DNA of 64,000 nt, taken from contig JBAZCR010000001.1 of NCBI GenBank assembly GCA_041654895.1, forward strand, positions 11,057-75,056, given 5' to 3'. The position numbers were made by a program, and so were the translations under genes. How positions within the stretch are numbered: the first letter of the stretch is position 1; each line of letters starts with the position of its first letter. This DNA comes from Candidatus Pacearchaeota archaeon. Lineage in GTDB: Archaea > Nanobdellota > Nanobdellia > Pacearchaeales > GW2011-AR1. The notes under the pieces were generated by a model. That model was not told where the DNA came from. It made no database searches and worked only from the letters and a program-made list of their open reading frames with translations. Shown here piece by piece: positions 3,263 to 17,623 of the stretch.

Positions 3263-3967
3263 ATGGAAATAATCGAACAAAATAAAGAAAAAATAAAATT
3301 TATTGCTGAGACAAATGTAAGCCTAGCAAATGCTATTAGAAGGAGTGTCAGTGAAATTCCAACTTTGGCGATTAAAGAAGTTGATTTCTATAAAAATGAT
3401 AGTGCATTATATGATGAAATTATAGCCCATAGGTTAGGTTTAATCCCTTTAAAAAACCAAAAATTAAAACAAGGTGAATTAATAGAGTTAAAATTAAAGA
3501 AAAAATCTAAAGATGAGAATACTTTTGTTAAGGCTGGAGAATTAGGAAATGATGTTGTTTATTCTGAAATGCCAATTGTTTTATTAGGAAAGAATCAAGA
3601 AATTGAGCTTGTAGCAAAAGCAGGTGTAGGTATTGGTTTAGAACATTCAAAATATGTCCCAGGATTATTATATTATAAACAATTACCCAAAATAAAAATA
3701 ACAAAAGAAGGTGAATCACATATTGAATTAGCTAATGATTATCCAGATGTTTTTGAATTCAAAGATAAATTAAGAGTAAAAGATGCAACACAATGTGAAA
3801 TTGATAATGATGACTTAAAGAATTTCCCAGGCGTTGAGATTAGTTTAAGTAAGGAAATAGTATTTAATATAGAATCTTGGGGACAAATTGATGCAAAAAA
3901 TATATTTAATGAAGCTTGTAAAGTATTAAAATCAAACCTCTTGGAAGTATCTCGGGCATTAAAATAA
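3263..3967 (+). CDS. rpoD: DNA-directed RNA polymerase subunit D (Rpo3)
   Basis: N-terminal dimerisation motif NAIRRSVSEIPTLAIKEVDFYKNDSALYDEIIAHRLGLIPLK. Sits at the conserved position after S11. Confidence 0.8.
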   Translation: MEIIEQNKEKIKFIAETNVSLANAIRRSVSEIPTLAIKEVDFYKNDSALYDEIIAHRLGLIPLKNQKLKQGELIELKLKKKSKDENTFVKAGELGNDVVYSEMPIVLLGKNQEIELVAKAGVGIGLEHSKYVPGLLYYKQLPKIKITKEGESHIELANDYPDVFEFKDKLRVKDATQCEIDNDDLKNFPGVEISLSKEIVFNIESWGQIDAKNIFNEACKVLKSNLLEVSRALK

Positions 3968-3971
3968 AAAT

Positions 3972-4054
3972 GAGGAGATGCCGGAGCGGTCAAACGGGGT
4001 ACGTTAAGGGCGTATTGGTTTTTACCTACGGGGGTTCGAATCCTCCTCTCCTCA
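3972..4054 (+). tRNA. tRNA-Leu (type II, long variable arm); anticodon reads AAG by standard numbering
   Basis: Acceptor GAGGAGA/UCUCCUC, D-arm CCG-GAGCGGUCAAA-CGG, anticodon arm GUACG-UUAAGGG-CGUAU, about 14-nt variable arm, T-arm GGGGG-UUCGAAU-CCUCC, discriminator A73, no encoded CCA. A34 is unusual, so the anticodon call is less certain than the Leu/type-II call. Confidence 0.75.
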
Positions 4055-4066
4055 TTAAAATAAAAA

Positions 4067-4423
4067 ATGAAAATAAGTAAAACGAAAATAGAAAATAGAA
4101 TGAAAAAAAAGAAAGATTTACTTTTAGTTAAAACGATAATTCTTTTAAAAAAGACTAATCCAGAGGTAGCCAAAGAATTAGCAAAACCAAAAAGAAAATG
4201 GCCCTCAATTAATTTAAAGGATTTACAATTAGTTGAAGGAGATATTGTTGTTGCTGGAAAAGTTTTAAGTGCTGGAGAGATAAGTGATCCTAAAAAAATA
4301 GTTGCTTGGTCTTTTAGCCAAAAAGCAAAAGAAAAAATAGAAGAATCTAAAGGAAAAGCAATTTTAATAAGTGAAGAAATTAAAAAAAATCCTGAATTAA
4401 ATAATTTGATTATAGTAAAATAA
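4067..4423 (+). CDS. rpl18e: 50S ribosomal protein L18e (eL18)
   Basis: C-terminal half VVAGKVLSAGEISDPKKIVAWSFSQKAKEKIEESKGKA matches L18e. Expected position after rpoD/tRNA in the archaeal cluster. Confidence 0.7.
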   Translation: MKISKTKIENRMKKKKDLLLVKTIILLKKTNPEVAKELAKPKRKWPSINLKDLQLVEGDIVVAGKVLSAGEISDPKKIVAWSFSQKAKEKIEESKGKAILISEEIKKNPELNNLIIVK

Positions 4424-4424
4424 A

Positions 4425-4838
4425 ATGGTAAAAATAATAGTTAATGGTAAAGATGCAATTTTAGGTAGAATGGGTAGTTATGTTTCTAAGGAATTGCTAA
4501 AAGGAAACTCTATTGATATAATTAATAGTGAAGAAGTTGTTATCTCTGGGAAAAAAGAATATATGATTGAAAAAATAAAGAGAAAAAGAAGAATGGGACA
4601 AGGAAGTTCATTAAAAGGCCCAAGATATATTAGAAGGGAAGACATGTTATTAAAAAGAATGATTAGAGGAATGTTACCCTGGGATAGGCAAAAGGGAAGA
4701 GATGCCTATAAGAGATTAAGATGTTATATAGGGGATAATAATTTAACAGAGGAACAAAAGAAAAAAACTAAAAATTTTGAACATCACTTGCCATTAAATC
4801 ATTATAAATTAAAAGAAGTTGTTAAGGGGTTAATATGA
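4425..4838 (+). CDS. rpl13: 50S ribosomal protein L13 (uL13)
   Basis: IIVNGKDAILGRMGSYVSKELLKG and MLPW.R.KGR motifs, plus synteny. Confidence 0.8.
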   Translation: MVKIIVNGKDAILGRMGSYVSKELLKGNSIDIINSEEVVISGKKEYMIEKIKRKRRMGQGSSLKGPRYIRREDMLLKRMIRGMLPWDRQKGRDAYKRLRCYIGDNNLTEEQKKKTKNFEHHLPLNHYKLKEVVKGLI

Positions 4839-5236
4839 ATAATATTGTAGTTACAGGAAAAAGAAAGAGTGCTATTGCAAAAGCCACAATAAAAGAAGGA
4901 ACAGGAAACATTACTATAAACAGAAGACCAATTTCTCAATTACCTTATTTACAACAATTAGAGGTAAATGAGCCCTTAATATTAACTCATGAAATATTAG
5001 GTAATTTAAATTTTGACGTTAGTGTAAATGTTAAGGGTGGTGGAACTTCATCAAGAATTGAGGCATCAAGACTTGCTATAGCAAGAGCAATTTTAAAATA
5101 TTTTAATAACGAAGAACTTAGAAGAACTTTTATTACCTATGATAGAAATATGGTGGTAGCAGATACTAGAAGAAAAGAAGCCTGTAAACCCGGGGATTCT
5201 AAAGCAAGAGCAAAAAGACAAACAAGTTTTAGATAA
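4835..5236 (+). CDS. rps9: 30S ribosomal protein S9 (uS9)
   Basis: GKRKSAIAKATIKEGTG, GGGTSSRIEASRLAIARAIL, and the C-terminal ARAKRQTSFR. Confidence 0.8.
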   Translation: MNNIVVTGKRKSAIAKATIKEGTGNITINRRPISQLPYLQQLEVNEPLILTHEILGNLNFDVSVNVKGGGTSSRIEASRLAIARAILKYFNNEELRRTFITYDRNMVVADTRRKEACKPGDSKARAKRQTSFR

Positions 5237-6386
5237 GATTAAAAATTAATTTTAAAAAGTGAACAATTTTTTCTCCACCCAATTGTATTACAATTCCAAA
5301 GATAAATACTAAACTTAACAAAAAAATTGCAATTTTATTTAATGGAACTGAATACTCGGGAATTCTTTTTCCTTTTTGTTTTGATTTAAAATTCATAACT
5401 AATATTAAAATGCCAGTTGAACCTCCTGTAACTACTCCAGCAAAGGATAAAATTTGAACAAAAGAAGCTAATTTAAAAAAATGAATTATTAAGAACATAA
5501 TGATTGGAGCAATTGAGCAGATGAGCCATGCGTGATTTCTTTTAACATTAAAATCAAACCTAAACATGTCTCTTAGTGATATATTAAGGGATAAATAACT
5601 TGTAAAAATAGCTATAGCTCCTAAAACAGCAAAACCTCTTCCCAAAGCTAATGTTGCAATCTCAGGAACTTGTTTTCCAAAATTTCCTAGTAAGACCAAA
5701 GTGAATAAAGAATAAACTACAAAAGGAATTAAAACTCCAAGAATAATAGATTTTTTCATCCAATTTTCTTTTCCTAATAGCAATCTTTTAGCTGAAGGAA
5801 TAGAAGAGAAAGATGTGAAAGAGAACAATACAATCCCAAAAGGAAAGAAGAAATTTTCTGGTTCAACAAATGTTAAGTTATCCATTTTTATTGAAGGAGT
5901 ATAAAATAATATAATTAAAAAAATAAATCCTAATATAAAATAAAACCCTACTTTTCCATATAGTTTTAATGCTCTAAGTCCGATATATGTTAGAATAGAA
6001 AGTAAAATCCAGAAAATAATTGAAAAAAGTAAGGCATAATTATTTGTTCCAGAAAAAATATAAGATAGGCTCTCACCTCCACCAATTATATATGCAATTA
6101 ATGTTGAAAAAATGTAAAAAATCATAATGAAAAGAGTTAATTTTTTTCCTTTATTACCTAAATATCTCTTTGCATAACCTGTTAATTGGCTATTTCCCTT
6201 TGTTCTTAAAATAATTTCTCCTAAACAAAGTTGAACAAATAAAACAAATAAACCAATTAAAATTAGATAGATAAAACCAATCAAAAATCCGGTTTTAGCA
6301 ATGATATAAGGTAAGCCTAAAAAACCTGCACCCATTGCCGTCCCTGCAATTAATGAAACAGGGTTTGATAATTTTTTTTTCACCAT
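5229..6386 (-). CDS. Amino-acid permease-like polytopic membrane protein (HAAAP/Aa_trans-like)
   Basis: About 11 predicted TM helices. N-terminus SLIAGTAMGAGFLGLPYIIAKTGF resembles hydroxy/aromatic amino-acid permeases. Confidence 0.45.
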   Translation of the reverse strand: MVKKKLSNPVSLIAGTAMGAGFLGLPYIIAKTGFLIGFIYLILIGLFVLFVQLCLGEIILRTKGNSQLTGYAKRYLGNKGKKLTLFIMIFYIFSTLIAYIIGGGESLSYIFSGTNNYALLFSIIFWILLSILTYIGLRALKLYGKVGFYFILGFIFLIILFYTPSIKMDNLTFVEPENFFFPFGIVLFSFTSFSSIPSAKRLLLGKENWMKKSIILGVLIPFVVYSLFTLVLLGNFGKQVPEIATLALGRGFAVLGAIAIFTSYLSLNISLRDMFRFDFNVKRNHAWLICSIAPIIMFLIIHFFKLASFVQILSFAGVVTGGSTGILILVMNFKSKQKGKRIPEYSVPLNKIAIFLLSLVFIFGIVIQLGGEKIVHFLKLIFNLI

Positions 6387-6470
6387 CTTATAAATAACAA
6401 ATTAAGTCTAAACTTAAATATCTTTTGAAAAAAATAAAATATTTATAAATTAAATCAAATTAATAATTAA

Positions 6471-9128
6471 ATGAAGAAAGAGGAGATTGTTGGTTTATCT
6501 AGTGCAGAATCTAAAAAAAGATTAGAAGAACACGGGTTTAATGAAATTAAAGATGTAAATAAAATATCTTCTTTTAAAATATTAATTAGACAAGTAAAAA
6601 GTAATTTCATTATTTATCTTTTGTTAGTTGCTATGATTTTATCTTTTCTTGTAAGTAAAAATATTACAGCCTACGTTTTACTTTTTGTTATACTAATATT
6701 AGTTACAACAGGATTTATTCAGGAATATAAGGCAGAAAAGTCAGTCCAAGCTCTTAAAAAAATGATTACTTCTACATGTCTTGTATTAAGAGATGGAAAA
6801 GAAAAAGAAATATATGTAAAAGAGCTTGTTCCAGGAGATATTTTAATTTTGAGAAATGGAGAAAAAATTCCTGCAGATTGTTTAATATTATATAAAAAGG
6901 AATTGTTAGTTAATGAATCTGTTTTAACCGGAGAAGCACATGAAATAAAAAAGGAGATAGCTATAGATCCTCAAAAATATGAAGATAAAAATGTGTTATT
7001 TATGGGTTCTTTTATTGTCCGTGGAAAAGCAATAGCAAAAGTAATTCATACTGGAATGAATACTAAATTTGGAAAGATTGCTAAATTAATATCCAAGAGT
7101 GAAAAAGAATTACTTTTACAAAAAAAAGTAAATAATATTGCAAAGTACATGGCCACCATAGGTCTATTTTTTTCAATTTTAACTGGACTAATAATTTTAT
7201 TTAGAGCTCCAGAGTTGAATAACCAAGTAATTGTTGAAGCATTAATTCTTGTTATTGCTGTTGCAGTATCATCATTTCCTGAAGGGTTTCCTGTTGTTTT
7301 AATTACAGCATTAGCCACAGGCTCATATAGGATGGCAAAGAAAAATGCCATTGTAAATAGAATGTCAATTATTGAAACATTAGGAGAAACGACAGTTATT
7401 TGTTCAGATAAAACTGGAACAATTACAAAAGGGGAAATGACAGTTACAAACATTTATTCTGATAATAAAGAATATACACTTTCTGGAACTGGTTATAATG
7501 ACAAAGGGAATTTTTATTTAGATAATAAGCCCGTAACTCTAGATAAAGAAAAATCCTTACAATTGTTATTAAAAGCAGGAATATATTGTAATGATGCGCA
7601 TATATATAGGAGTGGTCAAGAAGAGGGTGATTTTGATATAAATGGAACTCCAACAGAGGCTTCATTATTAATTGCAGCTTCAAAGGCAAAATTGTTTTAT
7701 GAGGATTTGTATTTTGATAGAAAAGAAGAGAATCCATTTTCATCTGAAAGAAAAATGATGTCTGTTTTAATTAAAGAAAAAAAAGAGAACTTTATTTACG
7801 CAAAAGGGGCCTTAGAAGTTTTATTAGATAAGTGCTCTTTTATTCAGAGAAATTCTGGAGTATATAGGCTTCTTGAAAAAGATAAAAAGAAAATATTAGA
7901 AGAAAATAAAAGATTTGGGAGTGAGTCATTAAGAACTTTAGCCTTTGCATATAAAATAACAAAAAATAATTTTAATAAAAAAATAGATTTTGAAAAGGAT
8001 TTAATCTTTTTAGGATTTGTAGGTATTAGAGACCCACCAAGAGAAGAGGTTAAAGAGTCTGTTAGGATGTGTAAAAAAGCAGGAATCAAAGTAAAGATGA
8101 TTACAGGAGATAGTAAAGAAACAGCTTATTCAATTGCAAAACAAATTGGTTTAGATAAAGGAAAAATTTTAGAAGGATTTGATATTGATAAATTAACTGA
8201 TGATGAACTAACAAGAATTGTTAATAAGACCGTTATTTTCGCGAGAGTAAGACCAGAACACAAATTAAGGATTGTAAAAGCACTAAAGGAGAATGGTGAA
8301 ATTGTTACAATGACAGGAGATGGAGTTAATGATGCTCCTGCACTAAAAGAAGCACATATTGGAGTTGCAATGGGCAAGAGCGGGACTGATGTTTCTCGTT
8401 CTGTTGCAGATTTAATTATTAAGGACGATGATTTCTCCACTATTGTTGATGCTATAAAAGAAGGAAGAACTATATTCAATAATATTAGAAAGTTTGTAAC
8501 ATATCAATTATCAGCTAATATAGCAGAATTAATAATTATTGTCATAGGCGCCTTATTAGTTCCTATTTTCGGTTGGCCAATCCCATTATTATTAGCATTG
8601 CAAATATTATTTATGAATATTGTAACTGATAATCTTCCTGCAATAACTTTAGGTTTAAACAAATCTTCTCAAGATATTATGGATGATAAACCAAGAGTAA
8701 AAGCACAGATTTTAAATAAGAATTTTGTACTAATTTTAATTTTCTCAGGAATATTTATGGCTTTGTTAGTCTTAATTACATTTTACTTTACATATAATAT
8801 CTTAGGTCAAACTATTGAAAGTGCAAGAACAACATCTTTAATTGCGCTAATATTTTTAGAAATTGCCGGTGCTTTTAATTTTAGAAGCTTCAGAAAAGGA
8901 ACAATTGGAAGATCTCTATTAACTAACCCTTCTTTAGCAATAGCTTCTTTTGTTTCAATTCTTGCAACAGTTTTGATAATTTATACTCCATTAAACATTA
9001 TATTTGAAACAGTTCATATACCTCTAATTGATTGGATTTTTGCTACAGGTCTTGGAATATTTTATATTATTGTATTTGATATTTTTAAAAAAATAAATGT
9101 AAAGAATCAAATACTAGATTTCAATTAA
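6471..9128 (+). CDS. Cation-transporting P-type ATPase (P2-type, Ca2+/Na+-K+ ATPase-like)
   Basis: CSDKTGTITKGEM phosphorylation motif, MITGDSKETA, TGDGVNDAPALK, TGE actuator motif, and 8-10 TM helices. Confidence 0.85.
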   Translation: MKKEEIVGLSSAESKKRLEEHGFNEIKDVNKISSFKILIRQVKSNFIIYLLLVAMILSFLVSKNITAYVLLFVILILVTTGFIQEYKAEKSVQALKKMITSTCLVLRDGKEKEIYVKELVPGDILILRNGEKIPADCLILYKKELLVNESVLTGEAHEIKKEIAIDPQKYEDKNVLFMGSFIVRGKAIAKVIHTGMNTKFGKIAKLISKSEKELLLQKKVNNIAKYMATIGLFFSILTGLIILFRAPELNNQVIVEALILVIAVAVSSFPEGFPVVLITALATGSYRMAKKNAIVNRMSIIETLGETTVICSDKTGTITKGEMTVTNIYSDNKEYTLSGTGYNDKGNFYLDNKPVTLDKEKSLQLLLKAGIYCNDAHIYRSGQEEGDFDINGTPTEASLLIAASKAKLFYEDLYFDRKEENPFSSERKMMSVLIKEKKENFIYAKGALEVLLDKCSFIQRNSGVYRLLEKDKKKILEENKRFGSESLRTLAFAYKITKNNFNKKIDFEKDLIFLGFVGIRDPPREEVKESVRMCKKAGIKVKMITGDSKETAYSIAKQIGLDKGKILEGFDIDKLTDDELTRIVNKTVIFARVRPEHKLRIVKALKENGEIVTMTGDGVNDAPALKEAHIGVAMGKSGTDVSRSVADLIIKDDDFSTIVDAIKEGRTIFNNIRKFVTYQLSANIAELIIIVIGALLVPIFGWPIPLLLALQILFMNIVTDNLPAITLGLNKSSQDIMDDKPRVKAQILNKNFVLILIFSGIFMALLVLITFYFTYNILGQTIESARTTSLIALIFLEIAGAFNFRSFRKGTIGRSLLTNPSLAIASFVSILATVLIIYTPLNIIFETVHIPLIDWIFATGLGIFYIIVFDIFKKINVKNQILDFN

Positions 9129-9682
9129 GGATATCTCTCAACAAAATTTTTATTGTTACGAGGTTTTAGAATTTTATTTAGCTTTCTCTGAGTAGCATAA
9201 AAAATCTCTGGATTAACTAAAGGAGTATGATTAGAAGGATACAATTGATTATTAAATTTTATTTCGCCTAGATAGGTCCTATTTTTTAAAATTTTTTTTA
9301 GACCATTTAATGAAATCCCGAAATCTTTAGAGAGCTTATTTAAAGAAATGTTTGAATTTAAAAATGTTTTAAAAATTAAAATAACTTTTGTTGAGTCTTC
9401 ATTTAATGTAAGAGCATTATTATGGATAGTATAACCAAAAGGAGCTCTTGTAACAGGATAACCCTGCTTTGCCTTAGCTTGCATTCCGGATAACTGTTTT
9501 TTTCCTGGTGTCGAATTATAAATCCTAAAAGTATCTAACATCTTCCAATCTATTTTTTCATTAATGTATTTTTCAAAATCCTTCTTGTTTTCTGGAGAAA
9601 ATGTCGAACAAATATTACATAGTGGCTGGTTAAATTTTAGGATATATCTTTTTTCATGATAACCACATTTTATGCATTTCAT
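9125..9682 (-). CDS. Zn-ribbon plus large-serine-recombinase 'Recombinase' domain protein that lacks the resolvase catalytic domain
   Basis: CIKCGYHE...CNIC ribbon, then GYPVTRAPFGYT...VILIFKTFL..ISLNKLSKDFGISLNGLKKILKNRTYLGEI...HTPLVNPEIFYATQ. This matches the pPyGY / vrrIf / iL.N..Y.GE / HePii..e.F..vQ blocks of the PF07508-type domain. Start trimmed to the internal ATG at 9680-9682, because the track's longer start overlaps the upstream gene. Confidence 0.5.
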   Translation of the reverse strand: MKCIKCGYHEKRYILKFNQPLCNICSTFSPENKKDFEKYINEKIDWKMLDTFRIYNSTPGKKQLSGMQAKAKQGYPVTRAPFGYTIHNNALTLNEDSTKVILIFKTFLNSNISLNKLSKDFGISLNGLKKILKNRTYLGEIKFNNQLYPSNHTPLVNPEIFYATQRKLNKILKPRNNKNFVERYP

Positions 9683-9704
9683 AACTAAATAAAAGGAGGG
9701 GTAT

Positions 9705-10220
9705 TTATAAAATAAGGGGACAATAATGCTTATCTTGAGAAATACTCTCAAGAGTTTTTTTTCTAAAAACATAATGTGCAAGGCCATCTGCCAAATAAAC
9801 CAAATAATTATTTTGGTCTAAATAATCTTGTGAAATAATTTCTAATTGAGATTCTTCTAAATTAAACTTATCAAAAAACATGTTAGAAATAGAATCTATC
9901 TCTTTGTCTTCCTTTAAACCATCGATATATAAGGTTAACTTAGTTACATCACTAAAATCAAAAGGATAAAATAAACTATAGACTATTTGTGGGAGTAATT
10001 TGCCTGAAGGTATTTCAGATTTTAATTTTTCATGTAATAATAGATAAGAATAATCTCTTCTATAAACTTTTTTTAGAAAAGAAGAATAATTTTTTCTGTT
10101 TTTCTCAAAATGGTTTTTTTGTGTGTCCTTTTCTTTATTTGATAATATTAATGCAAAAACTTCTGGGAATCGTCCATGATTTGACTCATCTATTCCTGCA
10201 TAAAGGTTTTTCTTTTTCAT
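9705..10220 (-). CDS. DUF3800-like protein (predicted RNase H-like fold)
   Basis: N-terminal YAGIDESNHG (y.DESG motif) and C-terminal YLVYLADGLAHYV (QxADl.ag-like), characteristic of DUF3800. Start overlaps the xerA stop. Confidence 0.45.
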   Translation of the reverse strand: MKKKNLYAGIDESNHGRFPEVFALILSNKEKDTQKNHFEKNRKNYSSFLKKVYRRDYSYLLLHEKLKSEIPSGKLLPQIVYSLFYPFDFSDVTKLTLYIDGLKEDKEIDSISNMFFDKFNLEESQLEIISQDYLDQNNYLVYLADGLAHYVFRKKTLESISQDKHYCPLIL

Positions 10221-11053
10221 TACAGATTCAGAGAATCTATTGGGCTTTTTATCTTTTTCAGTTCCTGAGTTGATATATGGGTGTATATTTGAGTTGTTGA
10301 TAAATTTGAATGACCTAATAATTCTTGGATTTTCCTTATATCTACATTATTCTCTAATAAATGGGTTGCGAAAGAATGTCTAAGTGTATGACAATGAACT
10401 CTTTTGTTTATATTTGCTTTTCTTGCAGCAGTTGTAACAATTTTTTGAATATTCCTTGTTGTCAACTTTTGTTTTGGACCTGAAAATAGGTAGATATTAT
10501 TATACTTTTTTTGTTTTTCCACTTGTTCCTTTAAATCCTCCATTAAAAAAAGAGGCAAATTAAAAATTCTATCTTTATTTCCTTTTGATTGTTTTATACG
10601 TCCTACTCTTTCATTAAAATCTAAATCATCTAGCCTTAAATTAACCAACTCTGAAACTCTTAAGCCACATGCGTACATTAAAGATATGATCAATTTTGAC
10701 TTTTCGTTGTTTGTTGAATTTATTAGGAATTTTATTTCATCTTTTGTTAAGACCGTAGGCAATATTTTATTTTTCTTAGGCCTTTTAACGCCCAAAGTTG
10801 GATCTTGATTTAATAAATTTGAATAAGCATATCTTATTGCAGCTAGAAAAAGAATTATTGAGCTTGAAGATTTATCTGAATATTTTTCTGCTAAAAAAAA
10901 CTTTATGTCTTCTGTATTTATCTGATTTGGGTTCTTTTCTAAGAAATCTATTAATTCGCTATTAGCTCTTAAATAATTTCGAATAGTATAATTTGAATTT
11001 TTTGTTATTTTTAATTCTATTTCTAATTTTTTTAAAAAATCTTCTTTATTCAT
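10220..11053 (-). CDS. xerA: Tyrosine recombinase XerA (XerC/D family)
   Basis: C-terminal catalytic box HTLRHSFATHLLENNVDIRKIQELLGHSNLSTTQIYTH, with R..K..H..R..H/W..Y residues. 277 aa, as for archaeal XerA. Confidence 0.8.
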   Translation of the reverse strand: MNKEDFLKKLEIELKITKNSNYTIRNYLRANSELIDFLEKNPNQINTEDIKFFLAEKYSDKSSSSIILFLAAIRYAYSNLLNQDPTLGVKRPKKNKILPTVLTKDEIKFLINSTNNEKSKLIISLMYACGLRVSELVNLRLDDLDFNERVGRIKQSKGNKDRIFNLPLFLMEDLKEQVEKQKKYNNIYLFSGPKQKLTTRNIQKIVTTAARKANINKRVHCHTLRHSFATHLLENNVDIRKIQELLGHSNLSTTQIYTHISTQELKKIKSPIDSLNL

Positions 11054-11216
11054 AATTTCACCTATTTTACTTCATAGATTGTACGAACAAGTATTTATAT
11101 TTTTGTTTTAACATTAAAAGATATTTGTTTTTGAAAAAAAAGGTTTTTCGGTTTAACGAATAATTAAATCGAAGTATTTTAAATTTAAATTAAACTTGAA
11201 TAAAAATTTTTTGTCG

Positions 11217-11244
11217 AGGATATAAAGAAAGATTTTATATATCT
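11217..11244. promoter_or_regulatory. Candidate dif-like Xer recombination site
   Basis: 28-bp AGGATATAAAG-AAAGAT-TTTATATATCT with inverted ATATAAA arms, about 165 bp upstream of xerA. The GGATATAA...TTATAT..CTAA arrangement resembles, from memory, the Pyrococcus dif. Unverified. Confidence 0.25.
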
Positions 11245-11453
11245 AAAAGTTAAAAAGACTCACTTTTTCTAAAATAAATTATGAAAAAAAAGAAATAAAT
11301 TAAGTTTTGCTTATTTTTTAACTCTCACTTTCTAAACTATTTTTTAAGCCTTTTTTAAGGTTGTACGAACTAATTAAACAGAAGTTTTAGAGATTTTTGG
11401 AAAAGCTAAAATAGAAAAGGAAATATCTTTTTTAAGTAAAAACACTAATCAGC

Positions 11454-11924
11454 TTAAATAAGCTCCTTAGAGATACTTTTTTCATAAAAGGGTGTTTTAT
11501 ACCCTAATTCTTGTAATCTTTGATATAATTCAAATCTAAAACGAGAATTATTGATCATTCTATGGTGATTTGGGCATAAGCCGACTAAATTTCCAAAAGA
11601 GTTATTTTTTTTATTTTTGTCTAGATGATAAATATCAACAATTTTATCAAATCCACAAATTACGCAAGATTTTGTTATTTTTCTGAAAGTCTTTAAATCA
11701 ATATTATTTGACTTTCTTTGTTGATAGGCTCTTAGTTTTTCACTTTGGTAAACATAGTTATAACAGGAGGCACATAAACCTTTTGCATGAATGGCTTTTT
11801 TCTGTTTGCATCTTCCACAAATTTTAAATTTTGGCGACCAATTTAGTTTTTTATAACAAGAATAACAAAGACCTTTCGCATGGTGCTCCTTTTCTTCATG
11901 ACAATTAATACATTTTTTAATCAT
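11454..11924 (-). CDS. HNH endonuclease with N-terminal Cys4 zinc fingers
   Basis: HNH motif VDIYHLDKNKKNNSFGNLVGLCPNHHRMIN, and two N-terminal CxxC...CxxC pairs. Confidence 0.6.
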   Translation of the reverse strand: MIKKCINCHEEKEHHAKGLCYSCYKKLNWSPKFKICGRCKQKKAIHAKGLCASCYNYVYQSEKLRAYQQRKSNNIDLKTFRKITKSCVICGFDKIVDIYHLDKNKKNNSFGNLVGLCPNHHRMINNSRFRFELYQRLQELGYKTPFYEKSISKELI

Positions 11925-12070
11925 TTTAAAAAAAAGTCGTTCGCATATAAAAATTTATGTTAGAACGGGTAGAATAAGTTCGATTTATACTATTAGAACT
12001 TCATACAAGGTATATTATACGAACCTTGCTAAATTTCTTGTTATTTTATGGATTTTAAAATAGTTTTGAA

Positions 12071-12394
12071 TCATCTAAAAGCTAATTTTGCAAAATTTAC
12101 GAATTCCTCTAAATTTTTTAGTTTTTCTTTTTGTTTGTATATTTCCTCAGTCATTTCCAGTATATTTTGTTTGGCCAAAGAATTTACTTCTTCTTGAGAT
12201 ATGATAGAAAGATTATATTCTGTTCGACAATTAGGGCAATAAAAACCCTTATCAAGAGCATTATAATAAGAGAGAATTCTTGTTTTATCATAAGGACAAA
12301 TTAAATCTGTTATTCTTTCGATAGGATTAAAATTACTTAATGAAATTACTCTTACTTCCTTTGTTTTCCAATCTATAAACGAAAGAGATTCCAT
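12071..12394 (-). CDS. Hypothetical Zn-ribbon protein
   Basis: CPYD...CPNC pair. No family assignable. Confidence 0.3.
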   Translation of the reverse strand: MESLSFIDWKTKEVRVISLSNFNPIERITDLICPYDKTRILSYYNALDKGFYCPNCRTEYNLSIISQEEVNSLAKQNILEMTEEIYKQKEKLKNLEEFVNFAKLAFR

Positions 12395-12629
12395 ATATAA
12401 TTCATAAGATTAAAGATATTTAAAATTTTCTATATTCTTTGACAATAAAGAAATTCTAAGAAAATTTATCCTATAAGATAAAGCCTATTATTTTATCTAA
12501 TAAATAAAATTCAGGACTTAATAGATCATTTATTGCAGGGCAAGTTTGCACAAAGGTAAACAAAGTGACAATATTAATTTAAGTACAATTACTCAAAATT
12601 TTAAAATAAAAAAAAGTTTTTTTACATCC

Positions 12630-12929
12630 CTATTTATTTTTTCTTCCTAGCTTATGAGAAATAAGATAATTTAATATAAAGCAGATCGAAAATGATAAAA
12701 TAATTAAAATTAGATAAGTCATCCTTATAGAAGAAATCATTCCAAAAAATTTTATAAAGGAATTTGAAAGAAAATAATTTTCTGGATCTAAAGAACATAA
12801 AGACCATGAATAAGTTGGATTCGGAACTTTTGGAGCAAATTTACAAGGGATAAATGGAATAAAAAGGGAAAGGATTAAGAGAAACAAAGAAACTAAAGCA
12901 GAAATTGTTAAATAATTTTTTACTTCCAT
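12630..12929 (-). CDS. Small hypothetical membrane protein
   Basis: Two hydrophobic segments, 99 aa. Confidence 0.25.
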   Translation of the reverse strand: MEVKNYLTISALVSLFLLILSLFIPFIPCKFAPKVPNPTYSWSLCSLDPENYFLSNSFIKFFGMISSIRMTYLILIILSFSICFILNYLISHKLGRKNK

Positions 12930-13024
12930 AATTAGAATATAAGATACTTCTCTTTTTAATACTTTTTATAATAGTCAATAGAAAACAAACAGCCGTTTAA
13001 AACATAAACAAACAGTCAAAAAAG

Positions 13025-13555
13025 CTGTTTGGACAGCAAACAACAAACAAACAGCCAAAAATAAAAAATTAAATAAAAATATTAAAAAAGGATGTTTTAT
13101 CTTTGATGTTTATAAGAAAACAGATAACCATTAAAAAAGAAAGAAGACTAAGAATACTAAAAAAATAGAACTTAGCTGTTTGGACAGCTGTCCAAAAAAT
13201 GGAAAAACTTATAAAGATAAACAATATTATTATAATATGTTTGGTGGTAAAAAGAGAGTAGAAATTCTAAGAAAAGAAGTGATAGAATCCTTTAATAATG
13301 TTAAAAACGATTTGGCGAAAGTGGGTAAATGGATTAAAGTTATAGACGATAAAAACAATTTAAATGAAAAAAACAATAGAGAATTGAAAGAAGAATTAAA
13401 ACAAATAAGAGAAGATTTAGAAGAAGTAAAAGGTAGCATAGAATTCTTTGGACAAGGATTGTCCAAACAGCTGTCCAAACACAAACAAACAAGTATAAAC
13501 AAACAACAAACAGTGTTTCCTGTCCAAACAGCTGTCCAAACAGCTGTCCAAACAG
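13025..13555. repeat. Dispersed and tandem copies of the 12-mer CTGTCCAAACAG / CTGTTTGGACAG
   Basis: Copies at 13025-13036 (rc), 13176-13187 (rc) adjoining 13188-13196, which gives the perfect 18-bp palindrome TTTGGACAGCTGTCCAAA at 13179-13196 spanning the ATG. Further copies at 13460-13481 (x2) and 13520-13555 (x3 tandem, encoding VQTAVQTAVQT). Related AAACAAACAG(C/T)C repeats occur 3 times at 12970-13070. Confidence 0.7.
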
Positions 13556-13848
13556 TTAAAATAGAGAAATTAACAGTTATGGAAAGGGCAATTATTTTTG
13601 CATTATTAAATAGCGAAATAAAATTAAGTTATGAAGATTTGGCAGCAATGTTTGGGAAAAGTAAAAGTACTATAAGAGGCCAAATTAATAATATTAAACA
13701 AAAAAATGTCAATTTAATTGAAGAATACACAGAACCAAATGGAAAAAAGAGACTATTTTTACCAGAAAAAGTCAAAAGCGACATTACAAAAGACATTAAA
13801 GTGAAAATAAAGCGTGAAAAACCTAAAAAGGCGAAAAGTGAGAGTTAA
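13180..13848 (+). CDS. Coiled-coil / low-complexity repeat / C-terminal winged-helix protein (putative DNA-binding)
   Basis: N-terminal heptad-rich segment, central Q/T-rich repeat encoded by the 12-mer repeats, and a C-terminal wHTH-like ERAIIFALLNSEIKLSYEDLAAMFGKSKSTIRGQINNIKQ. Paralogous in architecture to 14021..14728. Confidence 0.4.
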   Translation: MDSCPKNGKTYKDKQYYYNMFGGKKRVEILRKEVIESFNNVKNDLAKVGKWIKVIDDKNNLNEKNNRELKEELKQIREDLEEVKGSIEFFGQGLSKQLSKHKQTSINKQQTVFPVQTAVQTAVQTVKIEKLTVMERAIIFALLNSEIKLSYEDLAAMFGKSKSTIRGQINNIKQKNVNLIEEYTEPNGKKRLFLPEKVKSDITKDIKVKIKREKPKKAKSES

Positions 13849-14020
13849 AAATAATAAAAAGATATAGAAAAATCATTGAAAAGTGAGGGATTAATAAAAA
13901 AATTAAATTTTAAAAAGAGGTAAAAGAGAGAACAAGAATAAATATAGAGAGAATAAAAAGATTCAGAAACTGACTAAAGAAGAAAGATGAAGATAGTTAT
14001 TCGCTTAAACGAATAGTATC

Positions 14021-14728
14021 TTATAAATCTCTAAGTTTAATTATTGTTGATAAATTTGTAATCTCTTTAAGGGTTGAAGAGATAGAAAGTATAACTTTTT
14101 TGTTATTTAGCCTTCTTTTTGTTATAGGAATTCCTTTTTTAATCAATTTATTGACATAATCTCTTATAGAAGATTCGCTTAAATTTAATTTATCTGAAAT
14201 TAATTTATAGTTTATATTTTCATATTTTTGATCCTCATATGTATATATCGTTGAAAAGACTAACATTTCCTGGGATGTTAAATTTTTGAATGTCTTTCTT
14301 ATATCCTTTTTAACATCATCTAAAGAAGAAATTATTATATGAGCCTTTTCAAAATTAGATGAAATATTTAAAAAACCACTATTTTCATTTGAATTATTGA
14401 AATTTATGCCTATATTGTCTGTTGGTTTGTCTGTTGGTTTGTTTGTTGGAACCCCTTCATTTCCTGTGGAAAAAATGAAATTTTGAGCTTTTAAGCCATT
14501 TAAGAGGAGATTTTCATTAAGATCTATTGCTGGTTTGTTGGACTTATTATATTCACCTAATAGGTAATGTGTTGGAATTGCCTTTTTTTCTATTGAATCA
14601 ATTTTATTAGAATTTAGGTTTTGATAAGATCTTATAGCGTTTAATTCATTTTTCAATAAATCTAGTTCCTTTTTTAAAAAATTTATTTCTTCTTTGATTT
14701 TAGAAAATGCCTCTTTTAACATATCCAT
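14021..14728 (-). CDS. Coiled-coil / repeat / C-terminal winged-helix protein (paralog of 13180..13848)
   Basis: N-terminal LKEAFSKIKEEINFLKKELDLLKNELNAI coiled coil, KPTDKPTD tandem repeat (DNA GGTTTGTCTGTTGGTTTGTCTGTTGGTTTGTTTGTTGG at about 14418-14455), and the C-terminal wHTH MLVFSTIYTYEDQKYENINYKLISDKLNLSESSIRDYVNKLIKKG. Confidence 0.4.
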   Translation of the reverse strand: MDMLKEAFSKIKEEINFLKKELDLLKNELNAIRSYQNLNSNKIDSIEKKAIPTHYLLGEYNKSNKPAIDLNENLLLNGLKAQNFIFSTGNEGVPTNKPTDKPTDNIGINFNNSNENSGFLNISSNFEKAHIIISSLDDVKKDIRKTFKNLTSQEMLVFSTIYTYEDQKYENINYKLISDKLNLSESSIRDYVNKLIKKGIPITKRRLNNKKVILSISSTLKEITNLSTIIKLRDL

Positions 14729-14783: not shown

Positions 14784-15053
14784 TCATTGCATTTGTTTGT
14801 ATGCTTCATATGTTTTATTTGAAAGTCTCCATCTTAATCTTCTTTCATAAATTTGACCTAAAGAATTTCTATTTATTTTAACAACTAAACCCTTATTATT
14901 TAAGTCAAGAAGTAATTTCTTTATGAATTCTTCATCCCTTGCTAATTCTTTTGCTATATTACTTGTAAATACTTGTTTGGGTGAAATTAAAAACAAATAA
15001 GATAATATTTGTTCTGAAATTTTCTTTTTTTTTGACTCTGATATTCTTGGCAT
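14784..15053 (-). CDS. Small winged-helix transcriptional regulator-like protein
   Basis: 89 aa. ISEQILSYLFLISPKQVFTSNIAKELARDEEFIKKLLLDLNNKGLV is HTH/wing-like. Confidence 0.4.
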   Translation of the reverse strand: MPRISESKKKKISEQILSYLFLISPKQVFTSNIAKELARDEEFIKKLLLDLNNKGLVVKINRNSLGQIYERRLRWRLSNKTYEAYKQMQ

Positions 15054-15861: not shown

Positions 15862-16066
15862 GAAAAAAAGAAAAGTAAATTGGATATTAACTCTTTTAAT
15901 GTCTATATTTTTTGGTGGTATTGGAGTAGATAGATTTATTTTAGGGCATATTTTTTTAGGATTACTTAAATTATTTACTTTTGGTGGTTTAGGTATTTGG
16001 TGGCTAATAGATTTGATATTAATTGCTACAAAATATAATTTTAAAAATATTATATGGGTTGATTAA
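15854..16066 (+). CDS. TM2-domain small membrane protein
   Basis: [35 protein letters not shown] matches the TM2 signature (GxxGxxRFYLG...T.GG.GIW...D). Confidence 0.5.
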
Positions 16067-16085
16067 TTAATTTAATTTTAAAAAA

Positions 16086-16341
16086 TACAGTCACCCTATA
16101 ATTTCTTATGGAATTTATTTAAATAATTAATTTAAATTAATTATTTTTATATTTTTATTTATAAATATTTATATTATATAATATATATTATATTATGATT
16201 GTTTTCTAATATATACATTTAATATTAAATTATTTGTATTTTTAATTTTTTCAATTTCATGTGGAATAGAAATTAAGGGGTGACTGTATAAAATTTTTCT
16301 TCGATAAATAAAAAATGTTCTTTTTATATTTCCATAAGAAA
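16086..16341. promoter_or_regulatory. Candidate chromosomal replication origin (oriC): ORB-like inverted repeats flanking an AT-rich unwinding element
   Basis: TACAGTCACCC (16086-16096) pairs with GGGTGACTGTA (16277-16287). ATTTCTTATGGAA (16101-16113) pairs with TTCCATAAGAAAT (16329-16341). Both are perfect inverted pairs. They enclose about 160 bp that is over 90% AT (ATATTATATAATATATATTATATTATG...). The region lies directly upstream of orc1/cdc6. The TTCCA-N3-GAAAT dyad resembles the archaeal mini-ORB TTCCA-N3-GGAAA. Confidence 0.6.
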
Positions 16342-16408
16342 TGATGGTAAGGATTCTTATCTTTCAATTATATTAAACTTTATATAGTTTAAATTTATAT
16401 TTTAATTA

Positions 16409-17623
16409 ATGGCTGTTGAATTAAATAATATTTTTGAAAATGCTGTTAAAAATAGTTTATTTAAGAATAAAAGTGTTTTACAAGTAAAATATACTCCTGA
16501 AAGTATTCCTCATAGAGATGAACAGATAAAATCTATTGCAAGTATTTTAGCTTCTTGTTTAAGAAATGAAAGGCCAAGTAATTTATTTGTTTATGGTAAA
16601 ACAGGAACAGGAAAAACATTGAGCATTCAATATGTAATGAGAGAATTAACAAAAAAAGCAAAAGAAGTAGATGTTGAAGTTAGTTTTGAATATATTAATT
16701 GTAAATTGAGAAAAGTTGCAGATACAGAATATAGAATATTAGCTGCTTTAATTAAGCAATTAGGTGGTGATATTCCTGCAACAGGCCTTCCAACAGATAA
16801 AGTATGGAATAAATTTATTGAAATGGTTGATAAAAAGAAACAATTAATAGTTTTTATTTTTGATGAAATTGATCAGGCTATTAAAAAAATGAGTGATACT
16901 TTCTTATATTCTTTAACAAGATTAAATCAAGAATTAAATAATGCTCAAATATCTATTATTGGTATTAGTAATGATGTAACTTTTTTAGAAAATATAGATC
17001 CTAGAGTAAGAAGTAGTTTGGGTGAAGAAGAATTTATATTTCCCCCATATAATGCTATTCAATTGCAAGATATTTTAAATGAAAGGTGTTCTATAGCTTT
17101 TAAGGAAAAAGTAATAAAAGAAGGGGTTATTGCAAAATGTGCAGCTTATGCTGCAAGAGAACATGGCGATGCAAGACGTGCTTTAGATTTATTAAGAATT
17201 GCAGCAGAACTTTGTGAGAGAGAAGGAAAATTAGAAGTAGAGGAAAAATATATTGATTTAGCAAATCAAAAAATTGAAAAGGACAAAATTCTAGATATTG
17301 TAGAGACAATTCCAAAGCAACATCAATTAGTTTTACTATCTATTATAAATCTAAATAAAAAACAAAAAAATAAGAAAATAGAAAAATATTTCACTGGGGA
17401 TGTTTATAATTCCTATCAAGAATTATGCTTTCAAACAAAGACAGAAAGTTTAACTCAAAGAAGAATTAGTGATATATTAGCTGATATTGATATGTTGGGG
17501 ATAATTAATGCAAAAGTGATTAGTAAAGGAAGACATGGAAGAACAAGAGAAATTAAATTAAGTGTTCCAGATAATTTACTTAATAAAATAGAAAATTTAT
17601 TAAGGAATAGCTTAGGATTATAA
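16409..17623 (+). CDS. orc1: Orc1/Cdc6 replication initiator
   Basis: Walker A VYGKTGTGKT, Walker B FIFDEID, sensor motifs, C-terminal winged helix, and the typical N-terminus (...YTPESIPHRDEQI). Confidence 0.9.
   Translation: MAVELNNIFENAVKNSLFKNKSVLQVKYTPESIPHRDEQIKSIASILASCLRNERPSNLFVYGKTGTGKTLSIQYVMRELTKKAKEVDVEVSFEYINCKLRKVADTEYRILAALIKQLGGDIPATGLPTDKVWNKFIEMVDKKKQLIVFIFDEIDQAIKKMSDTFLYSLTRLNQELNNAQISIIGISNDVTFLENIDPRVRSSLGEEEFIFPPYNAIQLQDILNERCSIAFKEKVIKEGVIAKCAAYAAREHGDARRALDLLRIAAELCEREGKLEVEEKYIDLANQKIEKDKILDIVETIPKQHQLVLLSIINLNKKQKNKKIEKYFTGDVYNSYQELCFQTKTESLTQRRISDILADIDMLGIINAKVISKGRHGRTREIKLSVPDNLLNKIENLLRNSLGL

Follow-up and report, generated by a model that had tools for sequence, protein, structure and literature searches.

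Large serine recombinases are defined by three features, namely a domain carrying the Ser nucleophile, a Recombinase domain (RD) that follows alphaE, and a C-terminal zinc/coiled-coil domain. Modular homing endonucleases such as I-TevI and I-HmuI are built from a nuclease, a linker and a DNA-binding module. For the archaeal tyrosine recombinase XerA no partner is known, and whether it has a protein partner in vivo was left open by Cortez et al. in 2010 (PMC2958812). The gene described here touches on all three systems. It lies in a 64,000-nucleotide stretch of DNA, referred to as the window, from Candidatus Pacearchaeota archaeon (GenBank assembly GCA_041654895.1, contig JBAZCR010000001.1, positions 11,057 to 75,056), where it occupies positions 9125-9682 on the minus strand and predicts a 185-aa protein composed of a Cys4 zinc knuckle, the tail of alphaE and an RD. 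The preferred reading is that parts of the recombination and nuclease machinery were exapted to yield a non-catalytic protein that binds specific DNA sequences, with a role at the nearby Xer module favoured, and the probability of this reading as a whole is put at about 45%. Its parts differ in strength: non-catalytic DNA binding is likely, judged from the sequence and predicted fold, and the link to XerA and dif is tentative.

The open reading frame (ORF), recognised from the ORF listing, Pfam, homologues and dN/dS, is intact, begins with MKCIKCGYHEKRYILKFNQPLCNICSTF and has the N-terminal translation MKCIKCGY...LCNICSTF. Residues 1-30 (9593-9682; this and the following segments are on the minus strand) form a predicted CxxC-15aa-CxxC zinc knuckle, and C3, C6, C22 and C25 are the only cysteines in the protein. 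A helical linker at residues ~46-75 (9458-9547) is homologous to the C-terminal part of alphaE ('DTFRK...KQxxGMxxKAKxG'), as seen in profile, CcrA and BLASTP comparisons. The RD covers residues 78-172 (9167-9451) and was placed by the 4kis profile, Foldseek and identity to short serine recombinases; the blocks APFGYT, VILIFKTFL, ISLNGLKKILKNRTYLGEI and HTPLVNPEIFYATQ can all be read in the protein, which ends 13 residues beyond the RD. The computed pI is 9.85.

Database and structural comparisons agree on the C-terminal part. For Pfam Recombinase (PF07508) the score is 25.5 bits, above the curated cut-off of 21.1 (E 1.6e-5, residues 124-169), positions 136-260 of NCBIfam CcrA align with residues 64-179, and the PHROG integrase family phrog_95 matches residues 63-185 (E 1.9e-16). 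A family profile built from 61 sequences matches the RD of the A118/LI integrase (PDB 4kis/6dnw) over residues 80-172 (E 2.7e-9). The AlphaFold (AF2) model of the protein has a mean pLDDT of 88.4 and superimposes in Foldseek on the same RD with a root-mean-square deviation of 1.8 A over 120 columns (E 3e-6). In the model the N-terminus forms a beta-hairpin (residues 14-21) and a helix (23-27), with a pLDDT of ~88-90. All BFVD matches are full-length phage serine integrases. Neither the resolvase domain (PF00239) nor the recombinase zinc ribbon (PF13408) was found in the protein by Pfam at E<=1 and by Pfam, respectively, and PADLOC gave no match to it. Upstream, only 22 bp separate the start codon from a separate intact gene (9705-10220), and a tblastn search of the whole 64 kb with a serine recombinase from DPANN archaea recovered the RD part alone (9149-9487) and the catalytic domain nowhere. 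The RD after alphaE is present, whereas the Ser-nucleophile domain and the C-terminal zinc/coiled-coil domain are absent; lacking two of the three defining features, the protein is, on its sequence, not a large serine recombinase.

These results bear out most of an earlier note on this DNA, which described a stand-alone serine-recombinase DNA-binding module without a catalytic domain, a full run of RD blocks and a Cys4 motif ahead of the RD. Of the two outcomes that it named as refuting, a resolvase domain in another frame upstream and an insignificant HMM score for the RD, neither was obtained. Where it went astray was in taking the Cys4 motif for the recombinase Zn ribbon placed ahead of the RD.

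A zinc domain of recombinases moved to the front of the protein was rejected as the source of the motif, since the cysteines are homologous to the zinc knuckles of HNH nucleases. Full-length relatives that bear an HNH domain (HNH-RD proteins P0131, P0135, P0138, P0189 and P0245) have the N-terminus 'CQKCGF...ELEIHHI.P...GG...NLVTLCSICH.FAP' and match Pfam HNH and many PHROG HNH families. The four family cysteines align with the zinc knuckles of the beta-beta-alpha core in these Pfam-HNH-positive relatives. When the family was aligned with the HNH-bearing relatives by hhalign (E 1.2e-50, residues 1-172), the sole long gap was one of 17 residues located exactly over 'LEIHHI..G.D', and the CxxC pairs are read as the knuckles of a His-Me finger because this gap falls exactly on the catalytic insert. 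Intermediate forms make up a graded alignment series, from intact HNH through sequences with one His and sequences with the full loop but no His to the window family, in which ~17 residues are deleted. The window protein is without the beta1-His, the Asn and the helix His of the HNH active site, no conserved His or Asn occurs between or after the knuckles in the 61 sequences, and no HNH match to the protein was obtained in Pfam or PHROGs. The segment 'FAP....Y..EKIDW..LDTFRK' that follows is specific to the clade of HNH-RD and Cys4-RD proteins, and the part that begins at 'KQxxGMxxKAKxG..TRxPxGY' can be aligned with serine recombinases over the C-terminal portion of their alphaE and their linker. 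It is thus very likely that the Cys4 motif is the zinc scaffold of an HNH nuclease after loss of the His-His...Asn insert. A scan of IMG/VR with the HNH-RD proteins returned matches to the HNH domain only.

The Cys4-RD protein belongs to a widely conserved family, for which no description was found in the literature. Protein P0001, annotated as 'recombinase family protein [Candidatus Pacearchaeota archaeon]', is identical to it, and 216 further homologue clusters of 170-190 aa share 52-84% identity (217 homologues in all); 'DNA invertase Pin-like' is among the other database labels. Among 61 homologues, 38 columns are invariant, including all four Cys, and the start M-x-C-x-K-C is the same in every one despite differing upstream genes. 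dN/dS is 0.07-0.08 in comparison with the 84%-identical orthologue in locus L008 (related loci and proteins are cited by L and P numbers). A scan of one genome per species gave 79 family loci at about one copy per genome, in metagenome-assembled genomes (MAGs) of DPANN archaea labelled Pacearchaeota, Woesearchaeota and Nanoarchaeota and in two evidently mis-binned contigs. The latter were assigned to bacterial MAGs, L035 (JABMPI010000196) to 'Bacteroidetes bacterium' and L069 (JBNMFJ010000045) to 'Patescibacteria group bacterium'; both carry the family gene beside archaeal-type S9/L13/RpoD genes and are probably DPANN. Median identity to the window protein is 55%, compared with 50% for L13, 58% for RpoD and 64% for S9. 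This is the level of conservation of L13 or RpoD, and the family appears to be a roughly single-copy, vertically inherited core gene of Pacearchaeota/Woesearchaeota-type archaea. The three-part architecture and the status of the gene as something other than a pseudogene can together be taken as nearly certain.

A profile search of 1.84 billion representatives returned 18 clusters at E<1e-30, which are the family, remoter full-length orthologues and the closest HNH-bearing relatives. A further 3,720 weaker matches are mostly ordinary serine recombinases that align from profile position ~45-60 on, i.e. over the end of alphaE and the RD. Some family members (P0022 and P0121, also P0068 and P0112) have a C-terminal tail of 60-90 aa that is acidic/lysine-rich and ends in 'GLYKS(I/V)FD', which may be a partner-binding peptide.

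The closest relatives of the RD are found in short serine recombinases (SRs) of DPANN archaea. These have the nucleophile motif 'AAIYIRVSTQEQ' and no zinc domain, and their RD is 39% identical to that of the window protein (E 2e-25); the BLASTP alignment with the SR of L088 begins at 'GMEQKAKQG', and full serine recombinases align, from their residues ~125-140, to profile positions ~41-60 onward. All three HNH-intact relatives on readable contigs are encoded directly after, or overlapping, a 254-259-aa Resolvase+Recombinase gene. The window gene itself is not downstream of a gene of this type, its upstream neighbours being a 171-aa gene and xerA. In L088 and L089 the pair of SR and HNH-RD genes precedes a true member of the family by ~550 bp, and in L061 an SR alone is upstream of one. 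The order inferred from these relatives is SR, then HNH-RD, then a nuclease-dead chromosomal gene. First, the catalytic domain of a short DPANN SR would have been exchanged for an HNH nuclease, with the alphaE tail and RD kept; a copy of the HNH-RD gene would then have been fixed beside the S9 ribosomal operon, and loss of the nuclease residues would have been followed by vertical inheritance as a core gene.

Two-gene modules of SR and HNH-RD were seen in L087 (2345-3713), L088 (922-2305), L089 (72-1455) and L091 (428-2366). The HNH-RD proteins of these modules have intact catalytic residues, and P0131 carries an extra C-terminal domain of ~180 aa. The pair may represent a mobile element whose protein-guided nuclease has its DNA-binding module in common with the recombinase; no literature description of HNH-RD fusions paired with short SRs was found. 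In L082 a 255-aa SR (9566-10333) occupies the slot of the family beside S9 (compare L061, 8622-10519). The family signature 'NRTYLGEIKF...SPEIFYAVERKL' is present in the C-terminal half of the RD of this SR, and the gene looks like the product of a deletion that fused a recombinase gene with the downstream family gene. An SR is likewise in the family's own slot in L083.

The genes around the family member form a conserved block in the order orc1/oriC, dif-like site, HNH gene, xerA, RD gene, S9 operon. Neighbours were counted per locus over 3 kb, S9 when convergent and xerA when upstream and on the same strand. The neighbour that varies least is the gene for ribosomal protein S9 (4835-5236, plus strand), the last gene of an S13-S4-S11-RpoD-L18e-L13-S9 operon, which is convergent with the family gene in 61 of 65 loci. 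The xerA gene (10220-11053, minus strand) predicts an archaeal Xer-type tyrosine recombinase (NCBIfam recomb_XerA_Arch, 235 bits with a cut-off of 220; Pfam Phage_integrase, E 3.9e-47) and precedes the RD gene in 41 of 62 loci. The two are contiguous, with gaps of 1-48 bp, in L007, L053, L056, L078 and L095, and the RD protein of L095 is only 44% identical to that of the window. The adjacency to xerA pointed out in the earlier note is therefore recurrent. An operon with xerA as a general rule was rejected, as the intervening genes vary and are often on the opposite strand.

A single dif-like site is present in the window, GTTCGTATAA-TATACC-TTGTATGAAG (11999-12024, minus strand), and forms a 10-6-10 imperfect inverted repeat. 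It was recognised by unbiased k-mer counting in related loci, for which the consensus is GTTCGCACAA-TATACA-TTGTATGACG, a perfect palindrome in some genomes. The search pattern GTTCG[CT]A[CT]AA-N6-TTGTATGA[CA]G detected 37 sites in 35 of 84 related sequences, compared with 0.6 expected in shuffles, and all but three are upstream of xerA (e.g. L070:7458, L039:6946, L062:7513 and L078:9052). The site is ~1-1.6 kb upstream of xerA, ~2.3 kb from the RD gene and ~4 kb from oriC. Metagenome contigs recovered in a scan centred on the site have the same order of site, HNH gene, xerA, RD gene and S9, with the RD gene present in 8 of the 9 that have enough flank (the exception is L144). In other lineages an Xer gene with 40-48% identity starts ~95 bp from the site. 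Published dif sites have 11-bp arms and a 6-bp spacer, and those of Sulfolobales are close to xerA (PMC2958812). Because it fits this pattern and is near xerA, the repeat is the probable target of XerA recombination in these DPANN archaea. No literature description of Xer/dif in these archaea was found. A search with the dif consensus AGATATAA-N6-TTATATCT gave matches at chance level only, and this consensus was dropped.

Single arms of the site are also present. Counting of 10-mers revealed the half-site GTTCGTACAA just after the xerA TATA box (11079-11088, minus strand) and again in the spacer between xerA and the HNH gene (11361-11370, minus strand). The 10-mer GTTCG(C/T)ACAA, which is the left dif-like arm, has 59 copies, spread over 29 of 83 loci; nearly all are on the same strand as xerA, and none is downstream of that gene. 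In at least 15 loci it is found 15-37 nt before the xerA ATG, after the TATA box, and also in L095 at 2393-2402. Its placement in the xerA promoter suggests autoregulation by XerA or by another protein that would bind the arm. Copies were also seen in the promoters of other upstream genes, such as a 167-aa 'MKKRVVVNDLMQKNY' gene.

The HNH gene between the site and xerA (11454-11924, minus strand) predicts a 156-aa double zinc-ribbon HNH endonuclease, HNH156 (PHROG HNH families, E 1e-7; weak Pfam HNH match). It starts 99-104 bp after the dif-like site in ~25 genome loci and ~33 metagenome contigs, and an HNH nuclease hard-wired to a dif/xerA unit appears to be undescribed. A second dif-like element of 11-6-11 form (consensus GTTTGCACAAA-GTTTTT-AATATGCGAAC) seems to overlap the TATA box of HNH156.

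If the protein acts on this Xer module, it would either assist at the dif-like site, as an architectural or accessory component, or regulate xerA and the HNH gene. By analogy with the structure of the LI integrase bound to DNA, the RD and the preceding 'TRxPxGY' linker would grip about one turn of DNA (~10 bp) through the major and minor grooves. The basic knuckle would add a contact to DNA or protein, and no strand cleavage would take place. Invariance of residues on the RD surface suggests that the DNA sequence recognised is conserved too.

A role linked to XerA and dif is the favoured one, though held tentatively, on four grounds. In most genomes a site-specific recombinase is encoded next upstream; tight xerA junctions recur, even in the distant 44%-identical orthologue; L061 and L082 lack xerA, the HNH gene and the dif-like site throughout the upstream 10 kb and have a serine recombinase in that slot, as if one unit had been swapped for the other; and the literature leaves room for a XerA partner (PMC2958812). 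The stronger form of this proposal is less likely still. In it the protein is a dedicated DNA-binding partner of XerA, derived from an SR module by way of a nuclease-dead HNH protein, that controls or assembles Xer recombination at a dif-like site ~4 kb from oriC.

Several observations weigh against the overall reading. XerA of P. abyssi recombines dif in vitro without a partner (PMC2958812). In one third of the genomes the nearest 3 kb lack xerA; where it is present, the genes that separate it from the RD gene differ between loci and often lie on the other strand; and the distant orthologue P0124 keeps its position beside S9 without xerA. Conversely, the metagenome contig L144 retains the dif-like site, HNH gene, xerA and S9 with no RD gene there; since another gene occupies the slot, the RD gene is not obligatory at it. 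The window gene has a promoter-like TATA box of its own, and its invariant Tyr8 makes the sequence compatible with an unconventional active site. Finally, the whole block of ~15 kb beside orc1/oriC is syntenic, and the adjacency of xerA and the RD gene may simply be inherited. What stands of the earlier suggestion that the protein is an accessory or directionality factor for XerA is accordingly the adjacency; the role was inferred from context, S9 is the more constant neighbour, and synteny could explain the arrangement.

These points lead to the alternative that ranks nearly equal to a XerA/dif-linked role, and is just as unlikely taken singly, namely that the protein is a transcription factor or nucleoid-associated protein functionally unconnected to XerA, placed where it is by inherited gene order. 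It consists of DNA-binding parts only, is strongly basic and has a conserved TATA box; a gene kept as well as those of ribosomal proteins in very small genomes suggests housekeeping; adjacency to S9 exceeds that to xerA; the orc1 block is syntenic; and P0124 and L144 show that xerA and the RD gene can uncouple. Against it are the repeated tight junctions of 1-48 bp between xerA and the RD gene, one of them in the 44%-identical orthologue, an upstream neighbour that is a site-specific recombinase of either class in most genomes, and a search for a candidate operator that yielded only a conserved TATA/BRE-like element (BRE, transcription factor B recognition element) upstream of the RD gene. This TATA-like element, ATTTTATAAAT (9703-9713, minus strand), is 21-31 nt before the ATG and overlaps the stop codon of the upstream gene. 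Most of 73 orthologous loci have an (A)CATTTTATAAAT(T)CT element ~25-30 nt ahead of the start codon, and ATTTTATAAAT appears to be the gene's own promoter, giving a leaderless or short-leader mRNA.

As the protein shares the RD and alphaE tail of the short SRs, it might instead regulate or antagonise these enzymes by occupying their sites, in immunity, repression or directionality. The 39%-identical RDs of DPANN short SRs are its closest, SR genes are directly upstream of family members in L061, L088 and L089, SRs are in the family slot in L082 (there with the family RD signature) and L083, and the HNH-RD relatives are operon partners of short SRs. However, the family is near-universal and vertical while the recombinases are sporadic, and the 64-kb window contains no SR catalytic domain, which leaves this possibility improbable.

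A little less probable again is a function at the replication origin or in segregation, as a centromere-like or initiator-associated DNA-binding protein. The gene is ~6.4 kb from a probable origin of the type with origin recognition boxes and a DNA unwinding element (ORB/DUE), and at least 14 related loci have orc1 no more than 10 kb upstream of the RD gene. The basis for this proposal is positional alone, though; several winged helix-turn-helix (wHTH) genes are nearer the origin, and no motif common to the oriC region and the surroundings of the RD gene was found. The origin (16066-16408) was recognised by inverted ORB-like repeats (…GGGTGACTG / TTCCATAAGAAAT…) that flank a nearly pure A+T stretch of ~130 bp, and is followed by the orc1/cdc6 initiator gene (16409-17623, plus strand; Pfam Cdc6_C, E 6e-27; Cdc6_lid, E 9e-23).

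Residual activity as a site-specific nuclease or nickase, with a non-canonical active site in the shortened His-Me finger, is very improbable. Descent from HNH-RD proteins and the invariance of Tyr8 and Lys5 in 61 homologues speak for it, and PacI has a Tyr in place of the catalytic His (PMC5714182). Against it, all three HNH active-site residues are gone with 17 residues of the core, and conservation of Tyr8, a position that is Phe in most HNH-intact relatives, looks structural. A decayed or frameshifted serine recombinase, the alternative raised in the earlier note and supported by homology to just part of such an enzyme, can be dismissed given purifying selection at the dN/dS stated above, one and the same start in 61 of 61 homologues, an intact gene 22 bp upstream and no trace of a catalytic domain.

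The remaining features of the region concern the neighbouring genes and motifs. The gene between xerA and the RD gene (9705-10220, minus strand; 'YAGIDESNHG...ADGLAHY') predicts a 171-aa protein of unassigned function, with no match in Pfam, NCBIfam, PHROG or PADLOC. Relatives of 171-348 aa recur at this position in 16 loci, on one strand or the other, and there is weak similarity to a 205-aa gene in L006. The N-terminal motif 'YAGIDESNHG' and the C-terminal motif 'LADGLAHY' are reminiscent of RNase H-like or DUF3800-type proteins. In L144 the slot between xerA and S9 is filled by a 342-aa class-I aminoacyl-tRNA-synthetase-like gene (3662-4690, minus strand; HLGN...KMSKR). A P-type cation ATPase (885 aa) and an amino-acid permease separate the RD gene from S9 (5229-9128) in the window lineage only; in L002 (6555-9211) the ATPase is split into ORFs of 563 and 322 aa, pointing to a frameshift or to faulty assembly.

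Upstream of xerA, the motif GAAAGTGAGAGTTAA (11318-11332, minus strand) has an inverted partner at 13834-13848 (plus strand). Of 78 loci, 36 contain the GAAAGTGAGAGTTAA 14-mer, most often twice, in inverted orientation and ~2.5 kb apart, and the dif-like site and the HNH gene lie between the inverted GAAAGTGAGAGTTAA/AAAAGTGAGAGTTA copies. The far one of these overlaps a wHTH gene at its lysine-rich 3' end. The motif AAAAGTGAGAGTTA(A) is followed 25-70 nt after each copy by GAAAAGTGAG, and in L019, L026 and L037 it forms a GAGAGTTAACTCTC palindrome; AAAGTGAGAG motifs are also present in the window, in the region 11000-12100. The AAAAGTGAGAGTTA motif is real and local, and is a possible operator, ncRNA or terminator. 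An Rfam scan of 9000-14500 gave no match, and a sigma-70/terminator scan was dropped as uninformative for an archaeon. A further motif, 'GTCCAAACAGC', was rejected because 25 of its 32 occurrences are coding (QTAVQT repeats).

Three coiled-coil/winged-helix proteins are encoded between the dif-like site and oriC (13180-13848, plus strand; 14021-14728 and 14784-15053, minus strand). They have weak matches to HTH_DeoR/ParB-HTH, HTH_36/DnaD_N/MCM_WH and TrmB-like families and are kept in ~35 loci. Two of the three carry QT(A/D)(V/R)QT peptide repeats, which give rise to DNA repeats (GTCTGTCTGT..., ACAGCTGTCCAAACAGCT).

The molecular identity and the evolutionary path of the Cys4-RD protein are solid. 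They trace how the DNA-binding domain of a recombinase was probably exapted, from SR through an HNH-RD nuclease partner to a nuclease-dead core gene, and the intermediates can still be observed. The protein is among the few in Pacearchaeota/Woesearchaeota-type archaea that are annotated without a function and conserved like ribosomal proteins, and its position in an origin-proximal block with xerA and a candidate dif site makes it a concrete candidate for a XerA partner. If that proposal were true, it would define a cross-family hybrid system, combining an SR-derived module with a tyrosine recombinase, and would be the first answer to what, if anything, replaces FtsK-type control of Xer in archaea. 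There are consequences for annotation as well. The labels 'recombinase family protein' and 'DNA invertase Pin-like' are misleading because family members cannot be recombinases, and as PF07508 is widely used as a marker of integrases and lysogeny, they will lead to false calls of mobile elements or prophages in DPANN genomes. The pairs of HNH-RD and short SR genes, a compact module of protein-guided nuclease and recombinase, are worth study in their own right.

Compared with known systems, the protein resembles Xer accessory factors (FtsK gamma, or PepA/ArgR/ArcA at cer/psi) and recombination directionality factors in its hypothesised role alone, there being no relationship to them in sequence or fold. 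The inactive His-Me fingers of Smad MH1 and the nuclease-like domains of Enpp offer a parallel, as in these, too, the zinc scaffold has outlasted the catalytic His, with binding of DNA or substrate retained (PMC5714182). The remnant in the window protein (~30 residues) is far more reduced. The HNH-RD ancestors would have been organised like I-TevI and I-HmuI, in that a linker would connect a small nuclease with a sequence-specific DNA-binding domain; unlike in those enzymes, the DNA-binding module is the RD of a serine recombinase, and the window protein has no nuclease. With the HNH-RD fusions (P0131, P0135 and P0138) homology is full-length and includes the 'FAP....Y..EKID...L.TFRK' linker, but these retain the H-N-H residues and an SR operon partner, both missing for the window protein. 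DPANN short SRs of ~250-260 aa (L088 922-1701, L061 8622-9380, P0150 and P0168) have the closest RD and alphaE-tail sequences and share organisms, and sometimes the locus, with it; they keep the 'YxRVSTxEQ' Ser-nucleophile domain where the window protein has its Cys4 knuckle. The RD of large serine recombinases (A118/LI integrase, 4KIS and 6DNW) is alike in fold and in the signature R-x-P-x-G-Y; N-x-x-Y-x-G-E...H..i.s.e.F..vq, and by this analogy the window protein probably binds DNA in the same way. Unlike the LI integrase, the RD is free-standing here, with no resolvase domain in front and no zinc-ribbon/coiled-coil behind, and whereas that enzyme belongs to a phage or mobile element, the Cys4-RD protein is the product of a chromosomal core gene.

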